Position numbers and translations under genes: made by a program | NCBI RefSeq assembly: GCF_030684315.1 | Contig: NC_081362.1 | Location: 3,220,228-3,284,227, forward strand | DNA length: 64,000 bases | Source: Stegostoma tigrinum | Taxonomy: Eukaryota | Direction: 5' to 3' | The notes under the pieces: model-generated | The model's database searches: none | Seen by the model: the letters and a program-made list of their open reading frames with translations, nothing else | What the model was told of the DNA's origin: nothing | Part shown: in pieces, positions 12,600 to 56,793 of the stretch | How the letters are laid out: each line of letters starts with the position of its first letter | How positions within the stretch are numbered: position 1 is the stretch's first letter

Positions 12600-12833
12600 C
12601 AACACAGTGTGGAGCTGGAGGAACGCAGCAGGCCAGAATATCAGAGAAACAGGAAAGTCACCATTTCAGGCCGGGGCCCTTCATCAGAACTGGCTTTGCA
12701 GTATGGATTTACAAGTTCTGATAAAGTGTTCTGATCAAAACATCAACTCTGACGCTGCCTGGCCTGCTGTGTTCCTCCAGCTCCACACTGTGTTGGCTCT
12801 GACTCCAGCATCTACAGTTCTTGCTGTCTCTGA
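12600..12833. mobile_element. Mini-PLE with two inverted ends
   Basis: caacacagtgtggagctggaggaac...gttcctccagctccacactgtgttg with the tail at right. Hammerhead remnants on both strands. Degenerate 14-bp TSD (12586-12599 / 12833-12846, 3 mismatches). Confidence 0.8.
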
Positions 12834-13333
12834 ATGATTTGCGAGGTGTACAGTATCACTGAATCCCACTTGGTGCAAAAAAGCAAGGAAGTTCTAAAGT
12901 TGTATCAGTTACTCAACTCACAGGCACCAGAAAAGGTTAAAGCTCATTTCTAACCTGTCAAGAACAAGTGGGGTTGAACAATCAGTATTGGTCCTACCAG
13001 CAGAGTTCACAACCCATATGTGACAGCAAGGGGTCACATGCTGACCTTCTGTCCACACATGATCAAGCCATCATGGCATAAGTTCTCTTTTTGTCAGGGT
13101 TAAGGATCTATTTCCAGGAGAATTCTGATCAAAGAAGATGTGAGGTTGGTTGATCACAAACCGACTTGAGGAGACTGTGACATCTCCTCAGTGTTGACAC
13201 TGTCCCGTCTGCTTCCTACGTCACAGTCCACAGTTCACACTCAGTGCTTAGGAGCGAGCGAATCCACAAGCAATGGAGCCAGGGATGAGAGAAACAGGGA
13301 GAACATGGATCAGGGAGACCCCCAGTCAGTGAC

Positions 13334-13830
13334 AGTCCGGGTCAGAGAGAGTCTGGGTCAGGGAGAGTCCGGGTCAGAGAAAGTCCGGGTCAGGGAGAGT
13401 CCGGGTCAGTGAGACTGGATCAGTGAGAGACTGTGTCAGTGAGAGTCTGGATCAGGGAGAGTCCGGGTCAAGGAATGTCTGTATCAGTCAGGGTCTGGGT
13501 CAGGGAGAGTCCGGATCAGTGAGAGTCCAGGTCAGGGAGAGTCCGGGTCAGTGAGACTGGATCAGTGAGAGTCCGGGTCAGTGAGAGTCCGGGCCAGGGA
13601 GAGTCCGGGTCAGGGAGAGGCCGGATCAGTGAGAGTCCAGGTCAGGGAGAGGCCGGATCAGTGAGAGTCTGGGTCAGTGAGAGTCCGGATCAGTGAGGGT
13701 CTGGGTCAGGGAGAGTCTGGGTCAGTGAAAGTCCGGATCAGGGAGAGCCCGGGTCAGTGAGAGCCCGGGTCAGTGAGAGTCTGGGTCAGGGAGAGTCCGG
13801 GTCAGTGAGAGTCCGGATCAAGGAGAGTCC
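13334..13830. repeat. 16-bp minisatellite (GTCAG[T/G]GAGAGTCCGG)n, ~31 copies
   Basis: Direct tandem units with point variants and occasional 14-bp units, no unique spacers. Confidence 0.95.
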
Positions 13831-14718
13831 AGTTCACTGAGGGAGTGAGTGTGGGTGCGTGAGGGGGCAGATGTCAGAGGGTGGTTACTGGAAGGGTGGT
13901 TCAGGGAGGGATAGAGGTTGCTGCAAAGTGCCCCTACCTCAGGGAGCAGAAAGCAATATCCGACCCTTTGTGTGAAAAACATGCCTCGCACATCTCTTTT
14001 AAATTTCACCCCTCTCACCCTGAACCTGTGTCCCCTGCTAATTGGCCTCTCCTCCCTGGGAGAAAGCCTCATACCTCCCACTCTATCTATGCCATTCACA
14101 ATCTTACAAACTTCCATCAGGAAAGTAAGGAAGCCCCTCATCTCTGTGCGATCGCTGGTTAACAATGGGAGAAAATAGGAGTCCGGTGTTTTCACTTTTT
14201 AGTAAATATGTACAAGGCTGAGATAAAGAGATTTTTATTTAGGGGCATCAAGGATTATGGGAAAAGGATAGGGAAGTGGGAAGTGGGAAGTCGGCCATGA
14301 TCCTCACTGTATGGCAGAGTCAACACAATAGGCTGAATGGCCTAGTTCTGCTCCTAGGTTTTATGGTTTTCTCTGTTCAGTAATGGACTTCCACTGTAGG
14401 CTCTACAATAATTACCAGGACAAAGAAAAGTGCCGAATTAATGATGAGTGCCTGGAACACACTGCCAGAGGAGTTGGTGGAAGCAGTCACATTGGCAGCA
14501 CCTGGACAAATACATGAACAGGAAGGGTATAGAAGGATATGGATCCTGTAAGTGAAGACTGTTTTAGTGTGGAAGGGCAAAGCGGAGTCAGCACAGGCTT
14601 GGAGGGCCGAAGGGCCTGTTCCCGTGCTGTATTGCTCTTTGTTCTGTTGAGGATTTTAAAAGAAGTTATTTAGTCTGGGAGCCATAAGATTCCCTTGCTT
14701 TGAATGATTTCACAGTCA

Positions 14719-14933
14719 CAGGTTGTCCTCTGGTTACAAGCAGGTTCTGTTCCTGACCACGTTTGTAAGTTGATTTATCCACAAGTGGGAACACCGAGTG
14801 GTATGATATAAAATATCCATCGCTTTGTAGAAGAAAACACTCACATGTCTGATCCTTAAAGTTAACATTAAAATGGGATCTTGTTCATCGGCACATGTTT
14901 GTAAGTTGGACACTTACATTTCAGGGATCCCTG
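14719..14933. mobile_element. Old Tigger/TcMar-like MITE
   Basis: CAGG...CCTG termini, TA at right, internal repeated tttgtaagttg. Degenerate TIRs. Confidence 0.45.
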
Positions 14934-15400
14934 TAGATTGAACCACGTTTAAATGGATGGTCACTGTATTTTAAAAATGTTAAAGACTTGAACCTGAATT
15001 CTGTACGTTCTTGTAGATTTTGCTGTGAAGGAAGGAAAGAGATATAGCTTGCTGAAGTGCAAAATCCAAGAAGACTATTTTTTCAACAATCAAAAGATAA
15101 ACAGAAAACTCTGTAGTTAGATGGTGATTTTTGGTTCAGTACAGAACCTGCACAGCTCTTACAGGTAAATTATGTTATTAGGGTCAGCCAGGATTTTCAA
15201 ATGAAGCTCATGTTGTTAACTGATATTCTGTTAATTTAGAGCAAATCTAACATTCAGAAATAACGAATGGCTTTCTGCAATTGCAAAAACATGGCAAAGC
15301 ATTAGGAGGGCAATTTGGTATTGGGACTTTACTCCACATTGCTGTTATTGCAGCCCTCACAACTCTCTCATCAGAAAATCACCTTTATACTGTGCATTTC

Positions 15401-15860: not shown

Positions 15861-17268
15861 AGTAGCTTTTGTGTGAAATCCAATCCCAATGAACAATGTA
15901 AAAGTGGCTCACTGCACCGGGTGATAGAGTAATGGAGAAGGATTTAGAGGGAGATATTTTTCTAATCAACCTCTTCAGAGATGTTCCTACCCACCACTGG
16001 AGATGTTGGGACTTGAGCCAGATAGAAAGGGAATTCCAGAGTTCAGGAACAAGGGAATTGTCAAAGGTACATTGAATCATTCTATTCTGGGTAAATATAA
16101 GAGGGAGGGGACTTGTGGTGCATTGGCTAACATCCCAACCCCTGCTTCAAAACGTCGAGGTACAAGTCCCACTCCAGGACTTGTTCATCATGGAAAATCA
16201 TACAGAACAGAGAAGGCCTTTGGGCCCATGAAATCTGTCCCAAAAAAGAGACTAAATGTACATGAGCCCTGCTTTCCAGCATTTCCTCCATAGCCTTCAA
16301 TGTTATGACTTTTGAAGTGCTCATCTGAATAGGTTTTAAAGATTGTGAGGTTTTTTGCCACAATTACACCCCCAGGGGTGGGGTGGGGGGAAGAGCTGTG
16401 TTTATAATGTGGCTAAACAATTTGACAGGCTTGTAAATTCTTCCAATTTTCCTAACACTAGGCATTAAGAACAGGAGAGTCTCCTGGTCAGTTGTCCTAC
16501 CAAAGGTCATGACAAACCACGCCCGAGCTTTTTCCAGAAGCATGGATTAATCCAAAAGAAGCCCGTCTCCCAGTCATTCAGAAACAAGAACAGGAGATAG
16601 CTGGGCAACAGCAACATGAGGTCGAAATTAAAGAAGCACTAATATCCCAGAGGGGCATAAGACTGCAGGAGCTTACAGAGATGAGGGACAAATTCCTGGA
16701 TAAATTTGAAAAGAAAAGTAAGAAGTGTAAAATTGTGCAGTTCGTTTGCCTAATATGCTCAGTGGAGTTCAATCTAGCTTCCTTTTTAATCAAAATCAAG
16801 TCATTTCATTTTTTTTCTTTAATTGCAGCTGCTCTTAATTTTTTTCCCCAAAAGTATGTGTTGGCTATCATATAACATTATGTAAATCCATGACAATGCA
16901 TTGTTCAGTTAAAATATTACTGCTTCTTCATTCTCATGAGGGCCTCTTGTTTTTGTTTCAATCGCTCTTTTAATTTCAGTGTATTATGTGTCATTATTTT
17001 AAATTTTCTAAACTTTTGTTTATATCTGGCAAGCCCCAACAAATAAATCTGTGCACAGAACAAAGGTTGGGGGTTAAATGGAACTTCCTTCAAAATAAAT
17101 GACAAAATGCTGAAAGTGACAAATTTAGAGGGGCCTATGGAGATAACACTGTAGAATGAGACTAGCTGGTGAGCTCTTTTAGAAGCTTGCATAGGCGTGA
17201 GGGGCTGAATGGACTCCTTCTGTAATGTAAAATTCTATGATTCTACTTCAGACATTCATCACATTGAA

Positions 17269-17905
17269 AAATGGTTGACACTTAAGAAATATTGCATCCT
17301 TGGCTATTGGTAATTTTTTAAAATGTCTGTTCACAGGATGTGGATGTACATGGCTGGCATGGCACTTATTGTCCATCAGCAATTGCCCAGGAGAATGTAG
17401 TGGAGAGCTGCCTTCTTAGAAGACTGCAGTTCTTGAGGAGTAGAGCACCCACAATGCCGATAGGGAAGGAGTTCTAGGATTTGATGCAAAGGAACAGAGA
17501 TAGAATTCCAGTACCCAGCCGGGCAAGTGGGGAGTATTCCATCACACTCCTGACATGTGCCTTATAGATGGTGGACAGGCTTTGGAGAGCCTGGAGGTGA
17601 GTTACTTGCTGCAGTATAGCTAACTTCTGGCCTGCTCTTATAGCCAGTTCAGTTTCTGTCAATGGTAGACCCCACAGTGGTGATTGCAATAATGAAGTTG
17701 CAAGTGTGAGTACAACAAATGTGTTTCCAACTTTGCTTAGCTAACAAAAGCAATGGAAACATTGCAGCAGTCACTGCATTTTCCTGGGCAATTGCTGATG
17801 GACAATAAGTGCCATGCCAGCCATGTACACCCACATCCTGTGAACAGACATTTTAAAAAATTACAAGTATTCAAGGATGCAATATTTCTTAAGTGTCAAC
17901 CATTT
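17269..17905. repeat. 134-bp inverted repeat (17269-17402 / 17772-17905), 369-bp spacer
   Basis: aaatggttgacacttaagaaatattgcatcc... and its near-exact reverse complement. Confidence 0.92.
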
Positions 17906-19039
17906 CTCCAAGGGAGAATCTTGGAAATAAAAGCATCTGCTTCCTCTGCATCTCATTGGGGACAGTGGCTTGTGGTTTGACCAAATAAACCACAAACTGA
18001 TCTTTACTCACTTCCCTCAGCTCCACTTGATCATTCAATAATGGATGTGCAAGGGTTAAAACCTGGTACCACTGTGCGTGTGCTAAGGAGAAAAATGCAG
18101 ATTGATGCATAATGAGTCAAACAGGAAAGCACAAGTTCTACGTAAGACTCAGAGGGGAAAGGATCAATCTCACTGTGATGCCTTTTGCAATTCTATGAAT
18201 GAATCCACCAGTTGATTTACCACTGATTGTCAACTTCAGTGAGAAGGTGCATACCATCTGTGGCACCAAGGATCTTGCACATGCCAGTGTGTTACACACT
18301 TAAACATTCGGCTGATCCCCTCCAAACCCAGTTCCCCGAAAATGAGCATTGGAATTCCCTCCGTAAACCTCTTTCATTTAAGTGTCTGCTTGACACCTAC
18401 CCCGTTTGATCAAACTTTTGCTGACTTGCCTTAAGAACTCGTTGTGTAGCTTGGTCCCAAATTGTGTTTGATAATTAATGGGACCATGCTAACATTCTGC
18501 TGTGCTAAAAGTGTTGTGTAAATGCACATCTTTGCTGCTGCTCTGAGATTTTTTTAAAAATGGAAAATTAAGCTAGAACCTCTAATTTAGAAGCAATGCA
18601 ATGGATATCACAGGGCTTTAGTGATGTGCTTGCCGAGGCTATTGGCAGTTGTCCAATCTGAAGTTATCACTGCATCAGGAAAGCATTCTTGTCAGGCTGG
18701 CAGAAGACTATTAAAAGAATATGCAGATATCTGATGGTTCTACCTGCCTTGCAGAATTGTCAGTGCATTCTTGGTTATAGTACGTACCTCTGCCATACTT
18801 GTCCACCTTTCGCACTATCAGATTCACTAAACTCCTTAAAGACAACTTGTAATTCAAAAATCTGCCACTTGCCTCTTACAGCAAAAGTCTTCAGCAACAA
18901 GAGTGAAGCAAGCTAAAATGAACAGCAAATCTTTGTATCAGAGATAATGGGAACTGCAGATGCTGGAGATTCCAAGGTAATAAAATGTGAGGCTGGATGA
19001 ACACAGCAGGCCAAGCAGCATCTCAGGAGCACAAAAGCT

Positions 19040-19067
19040 GACGTTTCGGGCCTAGACCCTTCATCAG
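19040..19067 (-). ncRNA. Minimal type I hammerhead ribozyme core (left PLE arm)
   Basis: Minus strand reads CUGAUGA-A-GGGUCUAGGCCC-GAAAC-GUC. Palindromic ACGU stands in for stem III. Confidence 0.75.
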
Positions 19068-19291
19068 AGAGGGGGATGGGGGGAGGGAACTGGAATAAAT
19101 AGGGAGAGAGGGGGAGGTGGACCGAAGATGGAGAGTAAAGAAGATAGGTGGAGAGAGTGTAGGTGGGGAGGTAGGGAGGGGATAGGTCAGTCCAGGGAAG
19201 ACGGACAGGTCAAGGAGGTGGGATGAGGTTAGTAGGTAGCTGGGGGTGCGGCTTGGGGTGGGAGGAAGGGATGGGTGAGAGGAAGAACCGG

Positions 19292-20378
19292 TTAGGGAGG
19301 CAGAGACAAGTTGGACTGGTTTTGGGATGCAGTGGGTGGGGGGGAAGAGCTGGGCTGGTTGTGTGGTGCAGTGGAGGGAGGGGATGAACTGGGCTGGTTT
19401 AGGGATGCTGTAGGGGAAGGGGAGATTTTGAAACTGGTGAAGTCCACATTGATACCATATGGCTGCAGGGTTCCCAGGCGGAATATGAGTTGCTGTTCCT
19501 GCAACCTTCGGGTGGCATCATTGTGGCAGTGCAGGAGGCCCATGATGGACATGTCATCAAGAGAATGGGAGGGGGAGTGGAAATGGTTTGCGACTGGGAA
19601 GTGCAGTTGTTTGTTGCGAACTGAGCGGAGGTGTTCTGCAAAGCGGTCCCCAAGCCTCCGCTTGGTTTCCCCAATGTAGAGGAAGCCGCACCGGGTACAG
19701 TGGATGCAGTATACCACATTGGCAGATGTGCAGGTGAACCTCTGCTTGATGTGGAATGTCATCTTGGGGCCTGGGATGAGGGTGAGGGAGGAGGTGTGGG
19801 GACAAGTGTAGCATTTCCTGCGGTTGCAGGGGAAGGTGCCGGGTGTGGTGGGGTTGGAGGGCAGTGTGGAGCGAACAAGGGAGTCACGGAGAGAGTGGTC
19901 TCTCTGGAAAGCAGACAGGGGAGGGGATGGAAAAATGTCTTGGGTGGTGGGGTCGGATTGTAAATGGCGGAAGTGTCGGAGGATAATGCGTTGTATCCGG
20001 AGGTTGGTAGGGTGGTGTGTGAGAACGAGGGGGATCCTCTTGGGGCGGTTGTGGCGGGGGCGGGGTGTGAGGGATGTGTCACGGGAAATGCGGGAGACGC
20101 GGTCAAGGGCGTTCTCGATCACCGTGGAGGGAAAGTTGCGATCCTTAAAGAACTTGGACATCTGGGATGTGCGGGAGTGGAATGTCTTATCGTGGGAGCA
20201 GATGCGGCGGAGGCGGAGGAATTGGGAATGGGGGATGGAATTTTTGCAGGAGGATGGGTGGGAGGAGGTGTATTCTAGGTAGCTGTGGGAGTCGGTGGGC
20301 TTGAAATGGACATCAGTTACAAGCTGGTTGCCTGAGATGGAGACTGAGAGGTCCAGGAAGGTGAGGGATGTGCTGGAG
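19292..20378 (-). pseudogene. Inverted 5'-truncated copy of the PLE ORF (RT thumb, linker, GIY-YIG)
   Basis: ORF 19292..20434(-) is nearly identical to 20986..21855(+). Confidence 0.9.
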
Positions 20379-21855
20379 CTCACCTTTGTCGCCCTACAAC
20401 CACACATCAACGAATACCAGTCACGGTCGGACATAGAGCAGTTTTTCCGCCGTCTTCGCCTCCATGCCTACTTCTTCAACCGGGAACCCAACCCTCCTTC
20501 CACTGACCCCTTCACCCGCTTCCAACAAAAATCCCACTTCCTACAGACTAAGGGGGTGGCCATGGGCACCCGCATGGGCCCCAGCTATGCCTGCCTCTTT
20601 GTAGGTTACGTGGAACAGTCCCTCTACCGACACAGGCCCCAAACCCCACCTCTTCCTCCGGTACATTGATGACTGTATCGGCGCCGCCTCTTGCTCCCCA
20701 GAGGAGCTCGAACAGTTCATCCACTTCACCAACACCTTCCACCCCAACCTTCAGTTCACCTGGGCCATCTCCAGCACATCCCTCACCTTCCTGGACCTCT
20801 CAGTCTCCATCTCAGGCAACCAGCTTGTAACTGATGACCATTTCAAGCCCACCGACTCCCACAGCTACCTCGAATACACCTCCTCCCACCCACCCTCCTG
20901 CAAAAATTCCATCCCCTATTCCCAATTCCTCTGCCTCCGCCGCATCTGCTCCCACGATAAGACATTCCACTCCCGCACATCCCAGATGTCCAAGTTCTTT
21001 AAGGGCCGCAATTTTCCCCCCACGGTGATCGAGAACGCCCTTGACCGCATCTCCCGCATTTCCCGCGACACATCCCTCACACCCCGCCCCCGCCACAACC
21101 GCCCCAAGAGGATCCCCCTCGTTCTCACACACCACCCTACCAACCTCCGGATACAACGCATTATCCTCCGACACATCCGCCATTTACAATCCGAGCCCAC
21201 CACCCAAGACATTTTTCCATCCCCTCCCCTGTCTGCTTTCCGGAGAGACCACTCTCTCCGTGACTCCCTTGTTCGCTCCACACTGCCCTCCAACCCCACC
21301 ACACCCGGCACCTTCCCCTGCAACCGCAGGAAATGCTACACTTGTCCCCACACCTCCTCCCTCACCCCCATCCCAGGCCCCAAGATGACATTCCACATCA
21401 AGCAGAGGTTCACCTGCACATCTACCAATGTGGTATACTGCATCCACTGTACCCGGTGCGGCTTCCTCTACATTGGGGAAACCAAGCGGAGGCTTGGGGA
21501 CCGCTTTGCAGAACACCTCCGCTCAGTTCGCAACAAACAACTGCACCTCCCAGTCGCAAACCATTTCCACTCCCCCTCCCATTCTCTTGATGACATGTCC
21601 ATCATGGGCCTCCTGCACTGCCACAATGATGCCACCCGAAGGTTGCAGGAACAGCAACTCATATTCTGCCTGGGAACCCTGCAGCCATATGGTATCAATG
21701 TGGACTTCACCAGTTTCAAAATCTCCCCTTCCCCTACAGCATCCCTAAACCAGCCCAGTTCATCCCCTCCCCCCACTGCACCACACAACCAGCCCAGCTC
21801 TTCCCCCCCCACCCACTGCATCCCAAACCAGTCCAACCTGTCTCTGCCTCCCTAA
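20379..21855 (+). pseudogene. PLE RT + GIY-YIG endonuclease ORF, internally deleted and frameshifted
   Basis: QTKGVAMGTRMGPSYA, then a frameshift near 20630, then an open frame 20632-21855 with RYIDD (YIDD at 20662-20673), a Cys linker PCNRRKCYTC and VVYCIHCTRCGFLYIGETKR...RFAEH...VANH. Confidence 0.9.
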
Positions 21856-22079
21856 CCGGTTCTTCCTCTCACCCATCCCTTCCTCCCACCCCAAGCCGCA
21901 CCCCCAGCTACCTACTAACCTCATCCCACCTCCTTGACCTGTCCATCTTCCCTGGACTGACCTATCCCCTCCCTACCTCCCCACCTACACTCTCTCCACC
22001 TATCTTCTTTACTCTCCATCTTCGATCCGCCTCCCCCTCTCTCCCTATTTATTCCAGTTCCCTCCCCCCATCCCCCTCT

Positions 22080-22107
22080 CTGATGAAGGGTCTCGGCCTG
22101 AAACGTC
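22080..22107 (+). ncRNA. Minimal type I hammerhead ribozyme core (right PLE arm)
   Basis: CUGAUGA-A-GGGUCUCGGCCU-GAAAC-GUC. Confidence 0.7.
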
Positions 22108-22652
22108 AGCTTTTGTGCTCCTGAGATGCTGCTTGGCCTGCTGTGTTCATCCAGCCTCACATTTTATTATCAGCAAATCTTTGTAGCTGGTCTTAGGAAG
22201 GTGAAATTTTACATTCCTTTTATTCAAATGATTTCCCCTATTGTGGATGAAGGAATGAATGGAATCATTATTTTCCTCCACATCAATTCTTTTTGACAAA
22301 TTCAGTTACCTTGAAGAATGCCTCACAACTATTAAAGTGAGGTTATATCCTTTGGGAAGTTAGTACTTAATCAGTTAAATAGGGGTATTAAAGTCCCATT
22401 TACACAGCAGCGACTAATTCAGTTTTTGTATCGAGTTTGCAGCTGTTCCTCATTAAAATGCACTGTGTAAATGCCATAAGTTTGTTTACTCTTGCTGCAT
22501 TAAAAGGGACACCTCATGCTACCAGTTTTAAAGCAGCTGCAAATCACAGTGATCTAAATCAGACTCAGAAAGAAACTAATGCATATTCCCTCACTAGTTC
22601 CCAGCCTCACGGGCGCAGCAGACTGTGCACTAGGCAGTAACCCTATATGGTT

Positions 22653-22783
22653 TCAGAGATTGTAGGAACTGCAGATGCTGGAGAATTCTGAAGAAGGGTC
22701 TAGGCCCGAAACATCAGCTTTCCTGCTCCTCTGATGCTGCTTGGCCTGCTGAGTTCATCCAGCTCTACACCTTGTTACCTCTT
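22653..22783. mobile_element. Mini-PLE (inverted tail + hammerhead end)
   Basis: Homologous to the ends of the 18938-22170 element. 13-bp TSD accctatat(g/t)gtt at 22640-22652 / 22784-22796. Confidence 0.85.
22688..22715 (+). ncRNA. Hammerhead core in a mini-PLE
   Basis: CUGAAGA-A-GGGUCUAGGCCC-GAAAC-AUC, with a G>A change consistent with CpG decay at the cleavage triplet. Confidence 0.6.
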
Positions 22784-23084
22784 ACCCTATATTGTTGTTG
22801 GTTGTGTTCTCGTTAAGAGTATATCTGTGAATAGGACAAACAACAGCTCCCAGCTGGACTGAAACATTTGAAACTAATTTTGTTGATGTGCGGAAACAGT
22901 AATTTTACCAAGAAGAATGAATTTGAAAGAAGTGTGCATCAGCTTGCAGGGTTTAGTTCAGGTAAGCAAGGACTGGGTTTAGGAGCTCCTGGTGCTAACT
23001 CTCGTCAGCGATTTAAATATACCCAGCCTTGTTTCTAAATTGAGGACTGAGTGTCATAAATATGGTTACTGGGTCACTTGAACT

Positions 23085-23500: not shown

Positions 23501-23569
23501 AACAATGCCATGTAGGTACCAAGAGTTTTCTATGCAATCTCAAATTTACTGAGGCCTACTGGTATTGTT

Positions 23570-25035: not shown

Positions 25036-25398
25036 TCATAGAATCCCTACAGCATGAAGACAGGCCGAAGGGTCCACATCGACTCTCGAAGCATCCCACC
25101 CAGACCCATCACCCTATAATGTACATGATCTCAGGATGCTGCTTGGCCTGCTGTGTTCATCCAGCTTCACACTTTATTATCTTGCACTCTCCAGCATCTG
25201 CAGCTCCCATTAACCCTATAGTGTACACGTTCCTGAACACTATGGGACAATTTCCCATGGCCAATCCAACCCAATCTGCACATGTTCGGACTGTGGGAGG
25301 AAACCGGAGCACCCGGAGGAAACCCACGCAGACGCGGGGAGAATGTGCAAACTCCACACAGACAGTCGCCCGAGGCTGGAATTGAACCCGGTCCCTGT
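25036..25398 (-). mobile_element. HE1-like V-SINE, 5'-truncated, interrupted by a PLE fragment
   Basis: Reverse-complement similarity to 5710-6014. Confidence 0.85.
25126..25212 (+). mobile_element. PLE end fragment nested in a HE1 SINE
   Basis: gatgctgcttggcctgctgtgttcatccagc...cagctcccatta. 15-bp TSD accctata(a/g)tgtaca at 25111-25125 / 25213-25227. Confidence 0.85.
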
Positions 25399-25466: not shown

Positions 25467-25633
25467 GAAAACCACAAAAGCTGGAGATCACAGCGAGTCA
25501 CGCAGCATCCGTGGAGAGAGAGCAAGCTAATGTTTCGAGTCTCGATATGTTAGCTCGCTCTCTCTTCACGGATACTGTTATGATTTCCAGCATGTTTTGT
25601 TTTCAGTACAGATTCCAGCATTGCAGTAATTTG
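25467..25633. mobile_element. Mini-PLE, second subfamily, near-palindromic
   Basis: agcatccgtggagagagagcaagctaa...ttagctcgctctctcttcacggatact. Exact 13-bp TSD ctccccttagcct at 25454-25466 / 25634-25646. Nested in a CR1 fragment. Confidence 0.8.
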
Positions 25634-25981: not shown

Positions 25982-26108
25982 GATAGCTGGAACTGCCGAT
26001 GCTGGAGTCTGAGATAACAAGGTGTGAAGCTGGATGAACACAGCAGGCCAAGCAGCATCAAAGGAGCAGGAAGGCTGACGTTTCGGGTCCAGACCCTTCT
26101 TCAGAAAT
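25982..26108 (-). mobile_element. PLE end (hammerhead + tail)
   Basis: Homologous to 18938-19067. Flanked by the direct repeat ccaaggc. Confidence 0.8.
26077..26104 (-). ncRNA. Hammerhead core in a PLE end fragment
   Basis: Minus strand reads CUGAAGA-A-GGGUCUGGACCC-GAAAC-GUC. Confidence 0.7.
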
Positions 26109-29100
26109 ACCAAGGCAGGCAAGCGGCAAATAAGGACCATGGTATCCTGAAGTTCATACACACACGGAGGTAGGCTGAAGACGTCAGTGAAGGAGGGTTC
26201 AGTGCGAGGAAGGGGAGTGAACTTGGGGTCAGGTGTACCGTGGAACCCCCTTCTCCCCGGCCCCAGCTCCCTTCTCCCTCACAACAGCCTGCCCCACATT
26301 TCTTCCAGACGACCCTTCACCCCCACCGCGACGGTAAAATAGCGATTGGAGGTGAGGGGTCGGATGAGGCACTTAAGCGACCGTTAATTGGCCGCCTCTG
26401 ATCCAAAGGCGGGGCGTGGGGGATTGGAGGACCTTGGGACCTCCATCACGCACCCATCAAATTATTGAGACAGATTGAGAGAGGGTGGGACAGCAGTGGA
26501 CAGACTACACACTGCATTCTCTTGCCCTACACCAACCCGCGCCCCAACCTTCAAACCCACTGACAGAGGGGCTTGCAACACCCATCCATATCTGGTAGTG
26601 TCCCTAACTCTGAGCCTGAAGATCTAGTATCAAATCCCAACTACCCCGGAGCTGTGCTCTGAACAGGTTAAAAAAAACCCTTCGCGGTTTTCTCTTCTCT
26701 ATGTGCATAATATTGATTACAAACATTGTACTTGAAACAATGCTAAACACAAGGTAAGGTTGTAGTTAATAATCTTTAAAACAAAAGTCAATATTTACTC
26801 TGAAGTCTTTAGGAACCCAGAAACAGGTTGAAATGTTGAATCACTTGATCTGGATTCGCGTTCTGTGAATTATCCCTTAAAAGCTTTGTTTCATAAAAAT
26901 CAATCAATGTCAAGTTTAAAGTTAACCATCAGCCACAAGTATGAGCCGTGCATTGCAAACATTCGACTTCAGCATCAGTGTGTGGAGCTGGTTCCTAGTT
27001 ACGCTCCTGGAAAGCCTGTTTCAGATGGCAGTAAATTTTCAGCTACTTGTGTGCTCACCTGTCACAGATTCACTTATTCACACAGCATTGCCTGTACACC
27101 TTTCACTGACTGTGCGCGTACAGTTCGCTTACCTGCGGACTTAAAGGAAAAATGAAGAATGGAACTTACTTTCCGGAGTAAACGTGTGCTCTGCACTGCG
27201 CGTGTACTGCCGGTGGCCTACATGCCATGTCCACCGTTTGGGAAAATCATTGATCGCAACGTTCTTCAGGAACGCACCCCTTAGCAATGGCTCGACTTCA
27301 CCATTTGTCCCTTCGCCCTAGACCTCCCCCAGCGAGCGGAAATACTTCCCGTCTGTCTTGAAAACTTTGACCAACTCCTTTCATTCCTGGAGGAATACAA
27401 GCCTAGTTCATGGAATCTCTCCTTGTAGTTTAATTGAGGTCCAGGTATCAGCCTGGTATATGTACTCCCTCGGAGATCAACACCTCCTTCCCAACAAGTA
27501 GAGCACAGAACTGCAAATGCAGAACTCCACGTTTTCAGCGAAATGATGGCTGTTATCATTTATGTGAATTCATAGTTACTGACAGTAAATACAGATCACT
27601 CTTCATGTAGCATTCAGTCAATAAAATGTTATCATTGCAATCCAAGTTACAGGCAATGCTCTTCCATTCATTGTAGTGGCCAGTAACGTATTTAATTCAG
27701 TGCAACAATCATTACAATTTGGAAATTGCCTCAGTGGTTGTAAAATGCTTTGGGATATCCTGGGATAGTGAAAGAGGCTATATAAATGCACATTTTTTTC
27801 TCAATATCATTGTAATATGATGCTACATTAATTTGTCCTTTGGGCTTTCATAGCTGCATCTGGCAATGTATATTGCTGCTATAATTATTTTTCTCAAAAA
27901 GAGGGAAGGGATTTATCCATTTATACGTAAGTAGTAATTAACAGCAGCAATTTAATAGCTTAAATTCAAAACATTAATCTGTATCCAGATTCACTTAACA
28001 TTGATGAAATTCTTGTGCTTTGTTCTTGTATTTCGGTAACTTTGGATCTTGCCTTTTAACATATTACTTTGCTTTGTCAATGTGGAGGTTGTTTTCACAG
28101 GAAAATAAGGAAAATTCATTGAAGTCAAACAGTTGTTCCTTTTCTTCAAAATACAGACCATATAATTGAAGAGTGTAGACGTTAAGTAAATACTGTTTAC
28201 TGTTCTTACCAGCAGCTTTCACCTACAATCAAGATAAGTAGCAAATAAATGTTTTGGGAAAGAAAGCATGATTTTTCACTACACCAATGGCTCCCACAGA
28301 AAGTGACAATTAATCAGGAGAATGAAAATGCCTTTTTGCTTTCAATGGTGGGAAGCCTCTCCACTCTTTTATGGATTCTGTGAGGTGGATGAATAAAAGA
28401 TAGAAATAAAGAAGATAGGAACAGGAGCAGGCCATTCAATCCCTCAAACTCTGCCATTCACCATGATCATAGCTGATGATTGATCTCCTTCCCTATCCCT
28501 TGATCCCTTTAACTACAAGAGTTATATCTATCTTCTTCATGAAAACACATAATGTTTAATCTTCAATCACTTGCAATGGTATTGAATTCCATAGCCTCAC
28601 CACTTTCTGGGTGAAGGAAGTTCTCACCTCAGATCTGAAAGGTTATTATCCTTAAACTATGATCACAGATTCTGCACGACCCCGCCATCAGGAACATCCT
28701 TCCTACATCAAACCTGCTGGAGTCCTAGGTTGGATACTGCCCAGTGGAATCAAATGTCATTGTTGTACAGCAATAATTTGACAATCACTGCTGCATTCGG
28801 TTTCCTTGTTCATTTTCAGGCTTAAGCCAGCAAAAGTAAAACAGAATTCTTGACCAATCTGGTTGCCCTATGAAGATACTGATAGTACATTTCCCGGAAC
28901 TGATGACTCTCTGAGCTGATAGTATTCCCTGATGGCATGAAATGTTTTGAGCACTCATATCTGCTTCTCACCTTCACCTCCCTAAATCATTGACTGTACA
29001 GAATTTAACCCTCTTTGACTTTCCATCTGTTTCTCCTTCTTTAATCATCTTCTTAAAACTAACTTTGTAATAAAGTTTTCTTGTAACTTGTTCCAATGTT

Positions 29101-40811: not shown

Positions 40812-41038
40812 TATGACGAAATCTCACATTACGGGGGTATGGACGGAGTCGGAATGCCGACAACAATGTACGGTGACCCTCACGCCCCCAGGTCTCTCCA
40901 ACCTGTACACCATCTAAACCACGGGCCATCGTTACACAGCCACCAATATCCGCACACTAACCACGCTAATACCATGCCCCCGAACATGGGCTCCTCGGTA
41001 AACGATGCATTGAAGAGAGATAAGGACTCGATTTACGG
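40812..41038 (+). CDS. MEIS1: MEIS1-like coding exon 2 ([14 protein letters not shown]...[11 protein letters not shown])
   Basis: ag|TATGAC...TACGG|gtatgt, 227 bp. The translation (within ORF 40620..41102) matches the MEIS1 N-terminus: [23 protein letters not shown]. Confidence 0.95.
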
Positions 41039-41598
41039 GTATGTTTTGACCATGAGTTGCTCAACGATATTCTGTGATCTGCGGCAGGGACGGTACACGT
41101 GACACGTTAGTTTTTTCATTGAAATTCTCAAACAAAATGACAAACACACGGAAACAGTAAAGCACCAAAGTTTCGCCTCGGCTTGTGATTGAAATTGACA
41201 TTCTGTGGAAGCGGTCTTGGAGCGAGTTACATTTCATTCGCTATTGTAAATAACATGAGAACTCGGGAGCGCACGCATGATGTTGCCGGATGTTTTTTAA
41301 TAAATATTATTTTCTAAAAAAAAAGAAAAATTGCCGTCCAAAATGGCTGCTTAAAAGGTTATTTCAGGGCCATTTCGCTCTTAAATTCTGGCTTGCTCGG
41401 TCGGGAGAGAGGATTGTTGAGATTTCATGTCGTTAGAAGCGACCGCGATGTTTTACCAGTGAGTACAGTACGTTTACGACCAGTAATTTATGTAGAGCCC
41501 GCAGTCAACAAGTAGATTTTAAAGAAGTTCAAACTGTAGCGGCTGTATCAATCAAAAGAGAATCTCCCTTTCGTTTGTGTGTGTGTGTGTGTTTTTGA

Positions 41599-41808
<210 letters not shown>

Positions 41809-42300
41809 TAATTTTGAAAGTTGCAATAGTTTCAGTGACCGGACTCGGGTTTTCCTTGGTCTGCAGCAGAGTTTAGCACAAATTAACACAGAGCGCTTGT
41901 TGTGCCGATAAACCGAATTGAAAATGTTAATAGCAGCAAAATTGAAATGGTATCAAAATGTTTTTCAACGAATTGGGGTAATTGTATAAAGCGATCACAA
42001 TCGGAGCATTTTATTTATGGATCACGTTGGTGCTACCAGTGAAAACGCAGTCAGTTTAATTGTGGATTTTTTTAATTTTTAACTTGTTTGAAAGAAGTTG
42101 TCATTGCCTTATAAAGTGTTCCTTTTGAAATTAAGTAATGTGCTATCTGTTGGGCTAATACTGAGGAGAGAGTTTCCTTGTCGCTAATGTGTGATGTTAA
42201 AGCAGATTTTTGGAAGTTTGCGAATCAAGTTGGATGTATCGACTGTGAAGAGCGGGAGCGGGGGGAGAAGTGACCATTTGTATTTCTCTTTTCACTCTAG

Positions 42301-42351
42301 GTCCGAGCAGAAAAACCTCTATTTTCCTCCAATCCTGAGCTGGATAATTTG
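42301..42351 (+). CDS. MEIS1: MEIS1-like coding exon 4 (VRAEKPLFSSNPELDNL)
   Basis: Polypyrimidine tract, ctctag|GTCCGA...AATTTG|gtaagc, 51 bp. Confidence 0.95.
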
Positions 42352-43416
42352 GTAAGCCTGACCGCCTGTTCAGTAGAGGGAAGGCGCTGTAGAGAAACTC
42401 GTAAAAGCGTTTCCACTGAACCAAAGCAAATATATATTTATTGTGGCAAATTGTCAGGACTTCTTGGGAGATGGGTCGGCATCTACTGTCAGTTTAGCGT
42501 AGCCGCATATTTGGGGGAAAGCAATGAGAGAGAGAGAAAGGAGAGAAAAAAAAAACGATCGTTACAATCCGTTGCAAATCTGCGTTTTTTTTTGATTTTC
42601 TGATAGCAGTGACTGTCAGGAGCGATAACCATCACAATTCAGTTCCTGTATGGCTGTCACTCCAGTGAAGACGATGCGTGATTCTTATATTATATATTTC
42701 ATTTAATTTTCGCTTTTTGGCCTGGGCAGTGAAATTTTGGGTCGTGGCGGCGGTGCGTTAAGGTTCGGAGTTCTGTTCTGTGTCCCAAGTTGCCTGGGGT
42801 GAACGGAGAGGGACGAGGGAAGGAAGATACAAGGGTTGGTGGGTGTGTGTGGGGAGGGGAGTGCGGGTTCTGGTGGCTGGGAGTAATCCGGCCCTAATGA
42901 ATTTAAGGAGGCGCTCTAATTTTTAAAAAAATGCTAGGTCTTTTTGACTCCCTTCCCCTCGCCACCCCCTCCTCCACAACTGATTTCTTTCTACTTCTCT
43001 TTTAATATAAACGGTTGGAAAGAAGTTTACAGCATTTCTAGGCGGTCTCAAAGAAAGGGAAGTGTTTGCGTGCATTTGTCGGCCGAGTTCCATGCCTGTG
43101 CGGTTCACGTAGACTTGGCCTTGCTCTCAGTAGGCTGGAGAGAGCTGGGGGTGGGGGAGTGGGGCACGAGGAACGGTATGGGGGGGGGGAGGTTGGCGTG
43201 GGTTTAGGAGCAAACAGGAACGATTTTTGCCTATTTTTGCAGTCCCCCCAACTTCCAGCGCGCCTCCCACCTCTCTCCCAGACACACACCCGTACACATG
43301 TAAGAAATGCTAAAGATGCTGCCTTCGGGACTATTTGTAAAAAATGGGGAGCAGGCCCCCTCCCCCAGGCCCGTGCGTTTCCGGCTGCTAAGAGATGTTT
43401 ACCTGTTTCCTTTCAG

Positions 43417-43467
43417 ATGATTCAAGCCATACAAGTGTTAAGATTTCACCTTTTGGAGTTAGAGAAG
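43417..43467 (+). CDS. MEIS1: MEIS1-like coding exon 5 (MIQAIQVLRFHLLELEK; MEINOX HM2)
   Basis: tttcag|ATGATT...GAGAAG|gtaact, 51 bp. Confidence 0.96.
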
Positions 43468-44416
43468 GTAACTACCTCCTGTTCTGGTCCGTGGATGGTA
43501 TTAGACGTTCGTACTCGGTGCGACCAGGATTTGCAATTACTGTCAAAGCCAATCCTGCCTCACATTTCTCTTGCTCTTTCATTACAATTCATTCCACTAA
43601 AACCCCTGACCACAAACGCCCCGCCGTTTTGTTCATTTTAATCTCGCTGTGGGATTTAATTTTGATCAGCTCCATTTTTAAAACAAAAACATAAATCCTC
43701 TTTCTCGCCCCCCCGCACCCTTCCCCCCATCGAGCCCACACGTTATAAATGATCTAAAATGTCAACAATCTGCCGAATCTGACTCTTTAGACGGGAAATC
43801 ATAATATTTTGTCCTGGTAGTCTGCGAGGAATATTTTAATCAAATCTAAAAGACAAGTCGAGCTAGTATTTCTGAGGGGGGGGGGGTGGTGGTGGGGTGT
43901 GAAAGGAAGTGTGAGCATTTTAGTTTACCATGCCTGGAATCTCCCAAGACATATTTACTTGTTGAAGATCTGAGCAGTGTTTATCTGTGTCTCACTCGAA
44001 TCCTACATATCCCCCTTTTTTCTCGGAATTGTTCAGAGTTTGTAATGAAATAACGAGACGAAATTAAACTGTTTACCTTAAATGTCATTCATGCGGGTCG
44101 GACATCTAATGGGCACAGCCCCGGGAGCAGGCAAATTTAACACGGGTGTTGAATGCGTTGTAGCTGTGAATCATCTTGTCACTGTCAATTTTGTACCGAT
44201 ATCTCTATTTTGTTGGTTATTCCAAATTCTTGATGCGTGTGTCTCTGGGGGGGGACATTCACAAGTGCTTCCAACTATTGGGAACCTCGCGTCACGCAGA
44301 CCTGAGCTGGACTTGTCGCTTCTGCTTGAGTGTTATAATTTATTTTTTGCTTTTGAAAAAAATGTATTTTTTAGCGTATTGTACTTCATTATTTTCTCAT
44401 CGTCGTCCAACTGTAG

Positions 44417-44745: not shown

Positions 44746-44800
44746 TGTGCGTGTTTGTGCGTGTGTCTGTCTGTGTGTGTGTCTGTGTGTGTCTGTGTGT

Positions 44801-44849
<49 letters not shown>
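44746..44849 (+). repeat. Imperfect (GT)n microsatellite, intron 6
   Basis: Seen directly. Confidence 0.95.
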
Positions 44850-44850
<1 letters not shown>

Positions 44851-46029: not shown

Positions 46030-46060
46030 GATAGCAGGAACTGCAGATGCTGGAAAATCT
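46030..46060 (-). mobile_element. Tail-only PLE insertion
   Basis: gatagcaggaactgcagatgctggaaaatct between gttgtaga direct repeats (46022-46029 / 46061-46068). Confidence 0.7.
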
Positions 46061-47564
46061 GTTGTAGATACCTAGGAGTGACAGAGCGCTGTCTGAGGAA
46101 TTACATCGTAAGGTTATTGACAGGACTAGCACCTTATTTTTAATCGAGTGTGGAAACTTGTGGGGCAGCTGTAGTGGGAGAAACTGACCGCTTCAAGTGG
46201 GTATGGAGGGACTACCTGGAAAATACATCAGTTTCCTCACATTCCCCGAATCACAAGGAGATGGACAATATTCCTAAACGAGTGATTTCAGATCCAGTGT
46301 GGTTACTTGTGCATTATGTTCCACGGATTTGCGGGATTTTCTTTTGAAAAGGTGGTTCAAATTTTCCACCGAATTCCAAGTCTGAAGGAGCGTTTCATTC
46401 CCATGTTCAAATTAAAACTGGTTAAAATCCTGTACAGTGTATTTGCACACAGAATGTTATAGCCACGTACTGCTTGGGGGAACAGTAATTAACCCTCTAG
46501 TTTTAACCTAAGCGAGGATTCCTGCCCTTCCTACTCAGTGAACACTTCCTCAGGTTTTTGCTCTCGCTGTCCGCCAAAAGCAGAAATCAGGCTTATTTAT
46601 ATTTTGTGGCTTCGATTTCACGAATATTTGTGAAGAAAAGTTTACACAAAAAATACTGCTTACTTCGAGAGAGAAAAAAAACGTACTCTTCTCCGATCTT
46701 GTCTGTTTAAAACAAAACCCTATCGCTCTCTCCTTTCCATTAGGTTCTGATTGGTGATATTAGCGCTGTAGTTTCGCTAGATTATTCCATCTTCGATGTA
46801 TTTCTAATATCTACCCTCTGGCAAAAATATAATCAAATGAACTGAACTGAAAACATCTTACAGCAATGTCAGAAGAAAAAGGAAATGTAATTTGTTTGAA
46901 GCCTACACATTTTTACTCCTGTGCTTGGCTGTGGCACCCAGTTATTGTCGCAGTTTGGGGTTTGCTCTGTAACCTTGTTCAGGCTGGGATTTCTTGGGGG
47001 ATTGGGAGGCGGGGGTGGTGGTGAGGGAGAGGAGGTTGGTGTTGTTATAGACTCCGGACTCATCCCTTCCTCCAAAGTCTAACACAATCTGCGGCCACTC
47101 CACAATGGGGTTGACCCAGTTTCAGGCCTCAACACTGAACATTTAGCAAAAAAACACTTGGCTCGTTAAGAATTGTCTGGAAAGAGTAGTTGGAAAAAGC
47201 AGAGAGAGCTCTGCCTGAGGCCAGCGTTGGTGTAGAAGCGGTACCGTCCCTGGACGGGGCGTGAGGACTCAGTTGCTGAGCTCCTGTTGCAATTACTCCT
47301 GTCCAGGATGGAAAGCGGACTGCCTGCTGGCCAGATTTTCATTCCTCTTTCCCAAACGATGCCACTGAGCGAGGAGACGCTTTGAAGAACGCTCTCCATA
47401 GTTTTGTTCCCTCTCTCAGGTATTGACCGGCAGCTCTGTTCATCATTCGCTGTTTTCTACGTTGTAGAGACGGCTAGAAACCAGCTGACATTGCACTCCC
47501 ACACACCGCTGCGCCTTGCCCACAGAGTGCCCGTGCCAACCTCATTCATTGGGAGTCTCACCGA

Positions 47565-48010
47565 TCCCATTGCTACACTATTGGCACCATCACATGACTC
47601 TCACCATGCCCATTCTGACACTGACCGTCGCCGTCACATGACTCTACTGGCACTGTCACATGACTCTTACCATGCCCATTGTTACACTGACTGGCACTGT
47701 CACATGATCCTCACCGTTCCCATTGTTACACTATTGGCACCATCACATGACTCTCACCATGCCCATTCTGACACTGACCGTCGCCGTCACATGACTCTAC
47801 TGGCACTGTCACATGACTCTCACCATGCCCATTGTTACACTGACTGGCACTGTCACATGATCCTCACCGTTCCCATTGTTACACTATTGGCACCATCACA
47901 TGACTCTCACCATGCCCATTCTGACACTGACCGTCGCCGTCACATGACTCTACTGGCACTGTCACATGACCCCCACCATGCCCATTGTTACACCACCTGG
48001 CACTGTCATG
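47565..48010. repeat. 153-bp higher-order tandem repeat (~2.9 copies) built from ~22-bp monomers
   Basis: TCACATGA spacing 44/22/44/43 recurs. CTGTCA recurs at exact 153-bp intervals. Confidence 0.93.
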
Positions 48011-54400: not shown

Positions 54401-55865
54401 AATTTTAGAAAATACTTTATTGAAGAGCCCATTTTTGTTTTATCAATTAAAATACAGTAACAGCTACAGCATTGCCATTACCATACCAGCTACCATTAAC
54501 GTAAATGGTATTATAATAACCATTTTTTCTTTCATTAAATTATGATACTTTCCAAGCATAAGAACAGTTAGTCATCTAATTTTGCAAAATTTTATTTTGT
54601 TCTCTTTTAGTTTGTAGAATCATTGGCTAATGGGGAATTTGGTTAGCAGAATCTTTAGGCAGAAAACAATTAATGATGACAGACAGGCACAGCCTGTGCA
54701 ATATGACATGTATCAATGTGTAAATGCAGAAATCAAATCTGGTTATATACAGTAAACACAATATGCCTCTGGTTACTGGACAGATTTGTGAATTAGCTGC
54801 TGATGATTCACAGGGTGTGGGTGTTATTTTAAGCTTCATATAATAAACCTTCATCGAGTCATGTGATATGAAACTGCATTTATTATTCTAGTCAAAGCAC
54901 ATTACCTTTTGGTTAATGGAACTTTAGTAGGAGGTCCAAGTGTGCACAGTACATGAAATCTTATTATGTTACCTGATTTTGGTATCAGTGTCATTGGATG
55001 ACAAGGTCTTAAGTTTTTATTTGCAACATATGTATGTTTCACATTAATAACCTGATACAGTTCAGTTCAGTTCAAACAAATACAACTATGTCTGCTGTGT
55101 GAGACCCAATTTCTGTGACCTTGACTGTCTCCCTTGCCAACTCCTGATCATTCAGCTACCTGTCCCTGTCTTAAAGCTCAATGACCTTGTTACTGGCTCC
55201 ATTTGCATGAAATGTGTTCCCATCACTTTCAAACCTGGCAGCAGTAATTTACTGCAGAAACAGCCTGTTCAGGTTGAGTATGCTGAGCAATTCTATTCCT
55301 TGTTCCTACATGTCCAATTCTCTTGAAACGCTTCCTCAATCCCTATCAGTCCAATCAAGCTCTCTCCTGATTCTTCTCCTCTTCCTCCTTCTGTGTTCCT
55401 CTGATTCTGCTGTTGTTTTGCATCTTTTTCTCAACTTTAAGCGTCACAGGAAGCTACCTACATTGCGGATGCTACTATGAAATTGACGCAACTACAACAA
55501 ACTATCAATCTGACAGAAATGAGAACAGCAGTAATGTCCTTAGTTATTCAGATTAGTTGGAGTTTGGTTGTGATATTCCACAAGGATCAGTGTTGAGGTA
55601 CACTGCCACACACAATTTGCAATATCTACTCAGCACTTTCCAAATGTACTGCTGCTTGTATCTTCTCTTGCCAGGGGACATGCTGTCATAGGACGTCACA
55701 TTCTCCTGTTTAATGTCAGCCTTGAATTTTCACTCTAGCTCTCGTACAATGCTCTGTAACATACATCATCCAATTATGCCTGAGTCAACCCGTCATCCTA
55801 CTGCCCTTTGCCCTCTCGGGGAGATCTCTGCAGCTTTTCAGCTCTGATCAAGTGGCTAAAATACT

Positions 55866-56121
55866 TTGGAAAAAGAAAACAAATAACTGCAGTTTCTGGA
55901 AATTTGAAATGAAATGAAAGGTGCTGGAGAAACTCAACGGGTTTGGCAGCATCTGTGGAGGGAGAAAAGCAGAGTTAACATCCCAAGTCCAGTGACCCCT
56001 TTGTCAGAAAGGATTCTGATGAGTTCTGATAAAAGGCCACTGGACTTGAAACATTAATTCCGTCTTTCTCTCTGTGATGCAGCCGGACCTGCTGAGTTTC
56101 TCCAGCACTTTCTGTGCTTGG
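55866..56121. mobile_element. Mini-PLE, second subfamily, two inverted ends with decayed hammerheads
   Basis: gtgctggagaaactca...tgagtttctccagcac, containing gagttCTGATAAaaggccactggacttGAAACATTaattc. 12-bp TSD ggc(t/c)aaaatact at 55854-55865 / 56122-56133. Confidence 0.8.
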
Positions 56122-56257
56122 GGCCAAAATACTGACGTTTTAGTTTCTGAATGCCGCTTTTTAAGAGTTTTGTTCACGAGTGCTTCTTTATTTGTCTTGC
56201 GACCTGTGTGTAGAATTTTCAGTCTACGTCTGAGCATCCCCATTTCAAGTGATTAAT

Positions 56258-56331
56258 GTGTTCGGTAATATAATGGTTAGCAGCCCTGCCTGTCCACCTG
56301 GGAGACAGGGGTTCAGTTCTCTGTATGCTCA
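56258..56331 (+). pseudogene. Degenerate tRNA-Asp-like pseudogene or SINE head
   Basis: taatataatggttagcagccctgcctgtccacctgggagacaggggttcagttctctg resembles tRNA-Asp(GTC) after CpG decay. The acceptor stem is poor. Confidence 0.45.
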
Positions 56332-56753
56332 GCGAGCATTCAGCATTTTATCTGTGAAATTCCCCGCCCAGAGAAGCAATTGTGGCTACTTCATTTAATG
56401 TTTTTAAGGCGACACATAGATTTTTGAACAGTAAAGGAATTAAGGGTTATGGTGAGTTGATGGGAAAGTGGAACTAAGTCCATGAAAAGATTAGCCATGA
56501 TGTTCCTAATGAACAAGAATGTGGCATCTTACCAGTTTTTTCCTCATTTCAAAGTTGTGTTTCCTTCATTGTTAGCACTTCTTTCATCTTCTCAAGATTA
56601 CATCTGGCTATCTCTTCCCTCATTTTAAATTCCTCATCACATGTGCCCTCTTCTCTTATCATTTGCCCTATAAAGAGAAAATCTATCTCCTTGTTCCAGA
56701 TTTTTGCCATCCATTTCAATCTCCTCTCTCCTTTCCAATTCCTTCAAACTCCC

Positions 56754-56793
56754 TCAGAGATAGTAGGAACTGCCATGCCGAAAAATCTGAGAT
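56754..56793 (-). mobile_element. Tail-only PLE insertion
   Basis: tcagagatagtaggaactgccatgccgaaaaatctgagat between aactccc direct repeats (56747-56753 / 56794-56800). Confidence 0.7.

Follow-up and report, generated by a model that had tools for sequence, protein, structure and literature searches.

Insertions of canonical EN+ Penelope-like elements (PLEs) with an inverted pLTR and a tail are described in PMC3846280, PMC8557442 and PMC2377424. In these accounts, as here, a 5'-truncated copy lies inverted and head to head with the element, a tail of 30-40 nt is often present at one end only, and TSDs, a promoter in the pLTR and partial tandems are found. PMC8557442 treats it as an unsettled question how PLEs come to make inverted copies and to carry a tail on one side. 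The sole in vitro study concerns Poseidon of Anolis carolinensis, whose PLE protein cleaves and extends both strands; two internal starts of the reverse transcriptase (RT) bracket the tail, a hammerhead lies in the pLTR and a dimer is predicted (PMC11167929). These features are also found in, or proposed for, the elements studied here. According to the same source, no difference in start site was seen between the strands, primer-template homology was not seen and ribozyme cleavage was not needed. Poseidon belongs to a different clade and was assayed on one target, and the study reports no coupling of strand and site and ends short of an insertion model for inverted copies.

Both nicks also prime in L1 twin and dual priming, which leaves inverted arms within one TSD and uses one RNA in the former case and two in the latter (PMC2837659). 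As presented there, this is a side path in which the second site is unfixed, arms made by twin priming show no overlap and poly(A) is used by one of the primers, whereas the elements described here have two fixed, internal sites and arms with almost complete overlap. The minimal type I core with a palindromic loop seen here is that of the minimal PLE hammerheads of PMC4209133. Close opposite-strand pairs of hammerheads have already been noted in Schistosoma, and short tandem derivatives, found here at L012, are another feature in common with minimal PLE hammerheads and non-LTR retrozymes (PMC4209133; bioRxiv 10.64898/2026.07.22.740005). Retrozymes are head-to-tail tandems, whereas the small two-armed copies described here (minis) are inverted and appear to be rebuilt at each insertion. 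In the published accounts of canonical EN+ PLEs, the one-sided architecture is optional, if frequent, and TSDs are 8-10 bp long; here it was near-obligate (105 of 108 copies) and TSDs were 14-15 bp long, primer homology was measured and the 5' run-off points were fixed. The architecture itself (inverted copy, one-ended tail) is already published, and the new element is the strictness with which the two types of ends are paired.

Nine insertions in the window

An earlier note had reported nine insertions in the window, i.e. the whole stretch of 64,000 nucleotides analysed. All nine are real and start within 0-3 nt of the positions first given. Each is either an end or a truncated copy of a Neptune-type PLE, a label suggested by the linker motif and the vertebrate host. 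Arms that keep the terminal tail are termed tail+ and those that stop short of it tail-.

12600..12832, unstranded: type-A two-armed mini, old; left arm tail-, right arm tail+
18923..18937, + strand: left copy of the TSD of the 3.2-kb insertion, 15 bp, exact; right copy at 22171-22185
18938..20378, - strand: tail+ arm of the 3.2-kb copy, spanning -1434 to 0 in element coordinates
18938..18975, - strand: tail of ~38 nt, between both priming sites
19040..19067, - strand: core of a minimal type I hammerhead, its loop the palindrome ACGT (type after PMC4209133)
19071..19101, - strand: predicted core promoter, with a TATA-like box at 19094-19101 and transcription predicted to begin at 19071, 4 nt ahead of the hammerhead core
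20379..22170, + strand: tail- arm of the 3.2-kb copy, covering -2589 to -2430 and then -1676 to -39 in element coordinates
22653..22783, unstranded: type-A mini; right arm bounded by the hammerhead edge and the internal site
25126..25212, + strand: single tail+ arm without hammerhead; TSD of 15 bp with 1 mismatch
25467..25633, unstranded: two-armed mini whose ends are of a third type; tail- arm on the left, tail+ arm on the right; exact 13-bp TSD
25982..26109, - strand: single tail+ arm stopping at the 5' edge of the hammerhead; 7-bp repeat
46030..46060, - strand: solo tail, 31 bp; 8-bp repeat
55866..56119, unstranded: type-B two-armed mini of the second PLE family; left arm tail+, right arm tail-; 14-bp TSD with 2 mismatches
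56754..56793, - strand: solo tail, 40 bp; 7-bp repeat

In all five two-armed copies (12600, 18938, 22653, 25467 and 55866) the arms point outward and one is tail+ and the other tail-, as had been claimed. Other parts of the earlier description held only partially. The family had been called hammerhead-bearing; full core matches occur at 19067 (-), 22080 (+), 22688 (+) and 26104 (-) only, whereas 12600 and 55866 have a decayed core, 25467, the arms of which stop before reaching it, has a partial one, and 25126, 46030 and 56754 have none. An Rfam scan of the window gave no match to a hammerhead model and the hammerhead fold was not recovered by energy folding (z=0.75). Instead of two sequence subfamilies, there are at least two separate ORF-bearing families, to which 25467 adds the third end type. 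Flanking repeats of 7-15 bp were recovered for eight of the nine insertions; at 12600, a decayed 14-bp TSD (copies at 12586 and 12833) is matched by eye at just 11 of 14 positions and none was detected by the script.

The tail+ arm of the 3.2-kb copy carries the pLTR and encodes the RT C-terminus, a CX4CxxC linker and a GIY-YIG/CCHH endonuclease; the tail- arm has an internal deletion of ~750 nt and a hammerhead core at 22080-22107. In mini 22653, the left (tail+) arm consists of the tail alone and the TSD is 9 bp long when exact (13 bp with 1 mismatch). A SINE-like repeat carries the arm at 25126 at its 3' end, and the solo tail at 46030 is intronic, within a gene of the MEIS family.

Identity of the elements

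Both end families are tied to ORFs encoding RT and endonuclease (RT-EN), and the Penelope origin proposed earlier is supported. RT and, at the C-terminus, a GIY-YIG endonuclease are found in one ORF, as in EN+ PLEs; the RT motif YIDD was identified by eye and the Pfam GIY-YIG match (E=6.5e-4) is below the curated cut-off. The CCHH motif is present, its two Cys lying between GIY and YIG (VVYCIHCTRCGFLYIG ... HL..NH), and the endonuclease is preceded by the CX2-5CxxC linker characteristic of the Neptune/Nematis clade, in the form CNRRKCYTC. The full-length copy (L078-L079) has a unit of 3,528 bp with a frameshifted ORF, and shows the pLTR derived from a partial tandem, the tail and the hammerhead inside the pLTR that are traits of EN+ PLEs. 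Genome-wide, 54,678 occurrences of one 66-nt end motif were counted.

A 301-bp tandem array with promoter, hammerhead and tail is present at L012, in the head-to-tail order of retrozymes and comparable to their short tandem derivatives. For the nine window copies, membership of the non-LTR retrozyme class was rejected as they contain no head-to-tail tandem hammerhead units. DNA-transposon MITEs were rejected too, the ends being asymmetric and variable and the TSDs 11-19 bp long, against fixed symmetric TIRs and a constant short TSD. L1-type twin priming, which leaves arms without overlap and an internal deletion, was rejected because overlap of the arms was seen in a tabulated set of 65 simple copies; window copy 22653 is an exception.

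Pairing and priming of the two ends

All the evidence comes from fixed genomic copies, sampled mostly from the first 4.4 Mb of one contig and around an exact young motif, a choice that enriches arms reaching -129. Among 108 two-armed copies, 105 were tail+/tail-, none was tail+/tail+, two were tail-/tail- and one was unclear; with a TSD of at least 10 bp, the pairing was tail+/tail- in 85 of 85. It was also found in 89 of 92 copies of a set not selected for the tail (P=5e-23 against 50%), and in 27 of 29 copies of family B, the second PLE family (16 of 16 among those with a TSD). Single-armed copies use both sites equally (34 tail+ vs 36 tail-). Long and short ends differ by ~38 bases; a constant tail offset was observed together with varied junctions, in line with the check named in the earlier note.

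TSDs centre on 14-15 bp, with 68 of 85 measuring 13-16 bp. Their enrichment was borne out by a control: repeats of at least 10 bp flank 85 of 108 real copies, whereas none of 77 mismatched flank pairs exceeds 6 bp. Both ends carry a match of 1-4 nt between target and template, with a mean of 1.80 nt per site (51 ends each) compared to 0.65/0.69 nt for simulated insertions and 0.74/0.71 nt for real targets placed in the register of another copy (P<=5e-10). No clear fixed target motif was found at the insertion sites; T is enriched 2-3 nt beyond each nick.

These matches bear on the suggestion, made in PMC8557442, that both arms begin at one start site and that resolution by the endonuclease keeps or trims the tail on one side. 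Although such trimming would yield one-sided tails, it is very unlikely here: tail- ends have register-specific target homology (-36..-42) equal to that of tail+ ends, and the limits of the tail coincide with the two RT starts reported in vitro in PMC11167929.

The two-armed copies probably result from coupled priming at both nicks of a staggered cut, the RNA being copied from two fixed sites. Priming at both nicks, as first proposed, is retained as the best reading. The proposal that one primer lies at the RNA end was not supported, as the full-length copy shows the tail continuing into the ORF, and it is also contradicted by PMC11167929, where both starts are internal. The element's enzyme would nick both strands ~14 bp apart, and both resulting 3' overhangs would be extended on the element's own RNA by two coupled RT subunits, each presumably fixed to one site, so that one primer would start at the end of the tail and the other ~38 nt upstream. 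The far ends of both cDNAs would then be joined, by short homology or by a template jump. When contigs of four sequencing runs were compared with L147:1-4400, no usable empty-site joint was obtained, the output being dominated by paralogues.

A more specific version, programmed double priming, is put forward tentatively: an asymmetric RT-endonuclease pair would make a 14-nt 3' overhang and copy one RNA twice, the second RT displacing the first cDNA. If true, this would be the main integration route for the entire retroelement class, and such genomes would hold tens of thousands of "MITEs" that are fossil cDNAs left by run-off, marking the transcription start and the ribozyme cut made in vivo. 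The family, young and with more than 50,000 ends, provides numbers that can be tested by assay (site coupling, a 14-nt stagger, primer pairing over 1-4 nt, template ends at the predicted start and at the ribozyme cut), and is of relevance for an enzyme that writes both strands at one cut.

One RNA or two

Either arm may be the longer one (15 vs 12 of 30 copies). In 29 long copies, 952 of 1020 informative sites are the same in both arms, and rare variants are shared at 1.45/kb within copies vs 0.03/kb between copies; the arms usually derive from one source lineage. Gene conversion or source pools of the same age could also make the arms similar. Both arms end within 35 nt in 7 of 29 long copies vs 1.2 expected (P=1e-4). 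In the terminal 90 nt of the long copies the arms are no more concordant than shuffled pairs (discordance of 8.6% vs 10.4%).

The same data bear on fold-back, in which a single primed cDNA (or an antisense RNA) would fold on itself, be copied back as far as a fixed stop close to the tail, and then join the second nick; this has been proposed for rotifer Penelope, and self-priming was argued in PMC3846280. The palindromic centres, the rare variants common to both arms and the 7 near-symmetric long copies, an excess that fits fold-back too, are on its side. It is nevertheless unlikely. A single order of events predicts that one class of arm is never the longer, but either can be far longer; target homology is equal at both ends; and some minis have arms of two haplotypes. 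Furthermore, among single copies with TSDs, tail- is found as often as tail+, which indicates that the internal site primes by itself.

If both nicks prime, the balance tips slightly towards one shared RNA rather than two. Counted against it were the 5 of 49 minis whose arms differ at two or more of 5 diagnostic sites (two of them with wholly different haplotypes), and the stops at -42..-48, the expected collision zone: a strong pile-up of tail-only arms was absent there, with 6 of 124 tail-bearing arms.

Origin of the minis

Coupled priming would produce minis if it began at the pLTR copy adjoining the RNA 5' end, as both cDNAs would then reach the end of the template after 60-135 nt, either at the transcription start predicted at -133 or at the hammerhead cut predicted at -101. 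Arms stop at -129..-137 in 30 of 102 cases, vs 13 in -138..-250, and a TATA-like box lies ~30 nt upstream in both families. Perfect palindromes number 566 when centred on the hammerhead cut and 49 when centred on another 4-nt palindrome, the single control used, although the single-arm probes for cut and control were about equally common (168 vs 143). This excess supports the earlier idea that some templates start at the ribozyme cut, and points indirectly to self-cleavage of the minimal hammerhead, putatively as a dimer. Minis accumulate at a TATA/initiator-marked start, which lies 4 nt ahead of the hammerhead, and at the cut of the hammerhead itself, and they are likely products of run-off; for some copies, the template RNA may come from short tandem arrays.

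Alternatively, the small palindromes could be an independently mobile non-autonomous family, either a DNA-transposon MITE or a retrozyme-like unit copied whole. The 4,144 palindromic centres near -133, the one centre type shared by 13 of 50 minis, the 566 identical cut-site centres and the tandem array at L012 argue for such a family. It is however highly improbable given the asymmetric and varying ends (26 end pairs in 30 minis), the 21 centre types among 50 minis, TSDs of 13-16 bp rather than of fixed length, the presence of an identical centre on different subfamily haplotypes (L166, L171 and L175), the 9 nt from beyond the tail held by 2 of 26 minis and the RT-EN ORFs linked to both end families. 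Independent mini-elements, considered in the earlier note, are not supported as the main source of minis, and its view of MITE-like palindromes as retrotransposition products is upheld. The run-off reading bears on repeat annotation, PLE minis being mis-filed as MITEs, and on whether minimal PLE hammerheads cleave in vivo. A third 5' pile-up, of 7 arms, was seen at -92.

Two-armed copies nearly always pair one tail-bearing with one tail-less end

All nine insertions claimed in the earlier note were found in the window with direct repeats, the one at 12600 being decayed (11 of 14 positions); their description as a hammerhead-bearing family held in part, since only four full hammerhead cores match there. 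Upstream of both end points lies an exact 66-nt motif, of which the 3.2-Gb vertebrate host genome contains 54,678 occurrences. We sampled 87 stretches around the first 100 motif hits, which form 71 segments and cover 862,641 bp of contig C1; the window itself and 13 loci picked from tail-bearing hits were added. Positions (x) along the element RNA are negative upstream of the final tail base (0) and refer to one natural full-length copy (L078-L079), in which a 5' partial pseudo-LTR (pLTR) and a 3' pLTR flank the ORF and the unit measures 3,528 bp. Ends were classed as tail-bearing (+) at x ≥ -15 and tail-less (-) at x ≤ -24. Two outward ends were present in 108 of the 282 clusters. Of these, 105 were +/-, two -/-, one unclear and none +/+, and all three exceptions lacked a target-site duplication (TSD). 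The pairing was +/- in 89/92 two-armed copies of the C1 set alone and, with a cruder reference, in 27/29 of a second family, B, to which the insertion at 55866 belongs. Single-ended copies (at least 88% identity) comprised 34 + and 36 - ends, so free choice would leave half of the two-armed copies symmetric.

The 3.2-kb copy at 18938 has both arms within the same 15-bp exact TSD.

Arms of the 3.2-kb copy
x -1434 to 0, antisense arm, tail-bearing
x -2589 to -39, about 750 nt deleted, sense arm, tail-less

Its reading frames encode the C-terminal part of the RT, a CX4CxxC linker and a GIY-YIG/CCHH nuclease, a layout that is the Neptune/Nematis pattern as defined in PMC8557442. Family B has its own RT-EN ORF, with tblastn matches at 9/11 long loci. 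The element is genuine and a typical representative of an established class.

Both target strands look like primers

TSDs of at least 10 bp flanked 85 of the 108 two-armed copies, 68 of them 13-16 bp long, compared with no repeat above 6 in 77 mismatched flank pairs. Chance extension contributes ~0.7 nt, which places the true stagger near 14. Priming fell mostly at -5 to 0 and -36 to -42, two sites sharing the heptamer ATTATCT. The earlier proposal of priming at the RNA end is not supported: in the 5' pLTR of the full-length copy the tail continues directly into ORF-leading sequence, so the tail end is internal. Primer match was measured in 59 copies with exact TSDs and at least 90% identity; exclusion of 8 ends per class with untemplated bases left 51. 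The TSD 3' end matched the RNA continuation over a mean of 1.80 nt (51 ends per class), against 0.65-0.74 in two null models. As this match occurs at both end classes, both target strands look like primers, and we infer the 3' overhangs that such priming would require. In contrast, the study of the in vitro PLE reaction (PMC11167929) reports no primer-template homology; it does describe RT starting at two sites and both strands being extended.

Inverted copies with a one-sided tail (PMC3846280, PMC8557442), L1 twin and dual priming (PMC2837659), a pLTR promoter (PMC2377424), hammerhead pairs on opposite strands (PMC4209133) and retrozymes (bioRxiv 10.64898/2026.07.22.740005) are already described. 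Coupled dual priming, primer homology and run-off minis were not found stated in the PLE literature covered, which leaves out most subscription papers, older reviews and repeat databases. With so many copies, a known PLE oddity can be stated as a quantitative rule, and it yields a mechanism open to testing.

One RNA or two

Junctions of long arms were unique, and either arm could be the longer. Arms within one copy agreed at 952/1020 informative sites, above the between-copy median in 29/29; rare variants were shared ~40 times more commonly between arms of one copy than between copies; and both arm ends lay within 35 nt of each other in 7/29 long copies (P=1e-4). These observations favour one RNA, or sibling RNAs from a single locus, as the template of both arms, although gene conversion might also produce such likeness. 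Against one RNA stand wholly different arm haplotypes in two minis, at least two arm differences in 5/49 minis, the lack of excess arm agreement at terminal sites of 30 long copies, and the scarcity of tail-only arms in the sample. One RNA would simply explain the coupling of the two end classes and would need strand displacement. Retrotransposon RTs can perform strand displacement and end-to-end template jumping. Two RNAs would instead need an asymmetric complex, perhaps aided by hammerhead dimerisation (PMC4209133).

Origin of the minis

Short copies (<300 bp) made up 58/92 two-armed C1 copies. Arm stops clustered at -129 to -137, -101 and -92, the last being a third 5'-end pile-up (7 arms sample-wide). 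Lengthening the 66-mer 14 nt upstream reduced its occurrences to 33,931, and 4,144 palindromic centres lay near -133. The 50 centres listed among these fell into 21 types, the commonest (13) having both arms end at -133; a cap-templated C on both cDNAs with 2-nt annealing could also produce this centre, indistinguishably from a blunt join. The sequence 30 nt upstream of -133 holds a TATA-like box (identical 16-mer in 102/118 long type-A copies), and TATAAA precedes TCAGTT at similar spacing in 10/11 family B copies listed (of 13 loci examined). Read against the Inr and TCT consensus motifs, the -133 stop is taken as the predicted transcription start. Fifteen of 29 family B arms stop 1-6 nt before the hammerhead core; one extends well past it.

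The predicted ribozyme cut (-101) is the centre of 566 perfect palindromes, and the single control palindrome, at a distance of 16 nt, of 49. This difference suggests in vivo copying of cleaved RNA. Because their ends and centres vary and several subfamily haplotypes are represented, the minis are likely rebuilt at each insertion from 5'-proximal start sites of ordinary transcripts, rather than being the independent mini-elements that some of them were earlier proposed to be.

Two tandem arrays were also seen. L012:896-1984 is a head-to-tail array of ~301-bp units (about -190 to +109) containing promoter, hammerhead, tail and ORF-side sequence; this retrozyme-like derivative could supply mini templates. 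At L147:6219-6540, each unit begins at the hammerhead cut (-101) and ends at the tail site (-3), a pattern that suggests template jumping from a cleaved 5' end.

Other features in the window

5755-5976 and 25072-25397, SINE-like repeat, two copies, 87% identical
13295-13843 and 47557-48008, minisatellite arrays, the second with a ~153-bp unit
17237-17936, inverted repeat unrelated to the PLE, 166 bp, 89% identical, 370-bp spacer
~40870-43500, + strand, MEIS-family homeobox gene exons (Pfam Meis_PKNOX_N, E=1e-5; N-terminal exon by eye)

Insertions 46030, 55866 and 56754 probably lie in an intron of the MEIS-family gene, and insertion 25126 is within the second SINE-like copy. A weak Rfam microRNA match (E=0.2) at 55976-56056, on the centre of the family B palindrome, reflects chance similarity of a hairpin and could mislead annotators.
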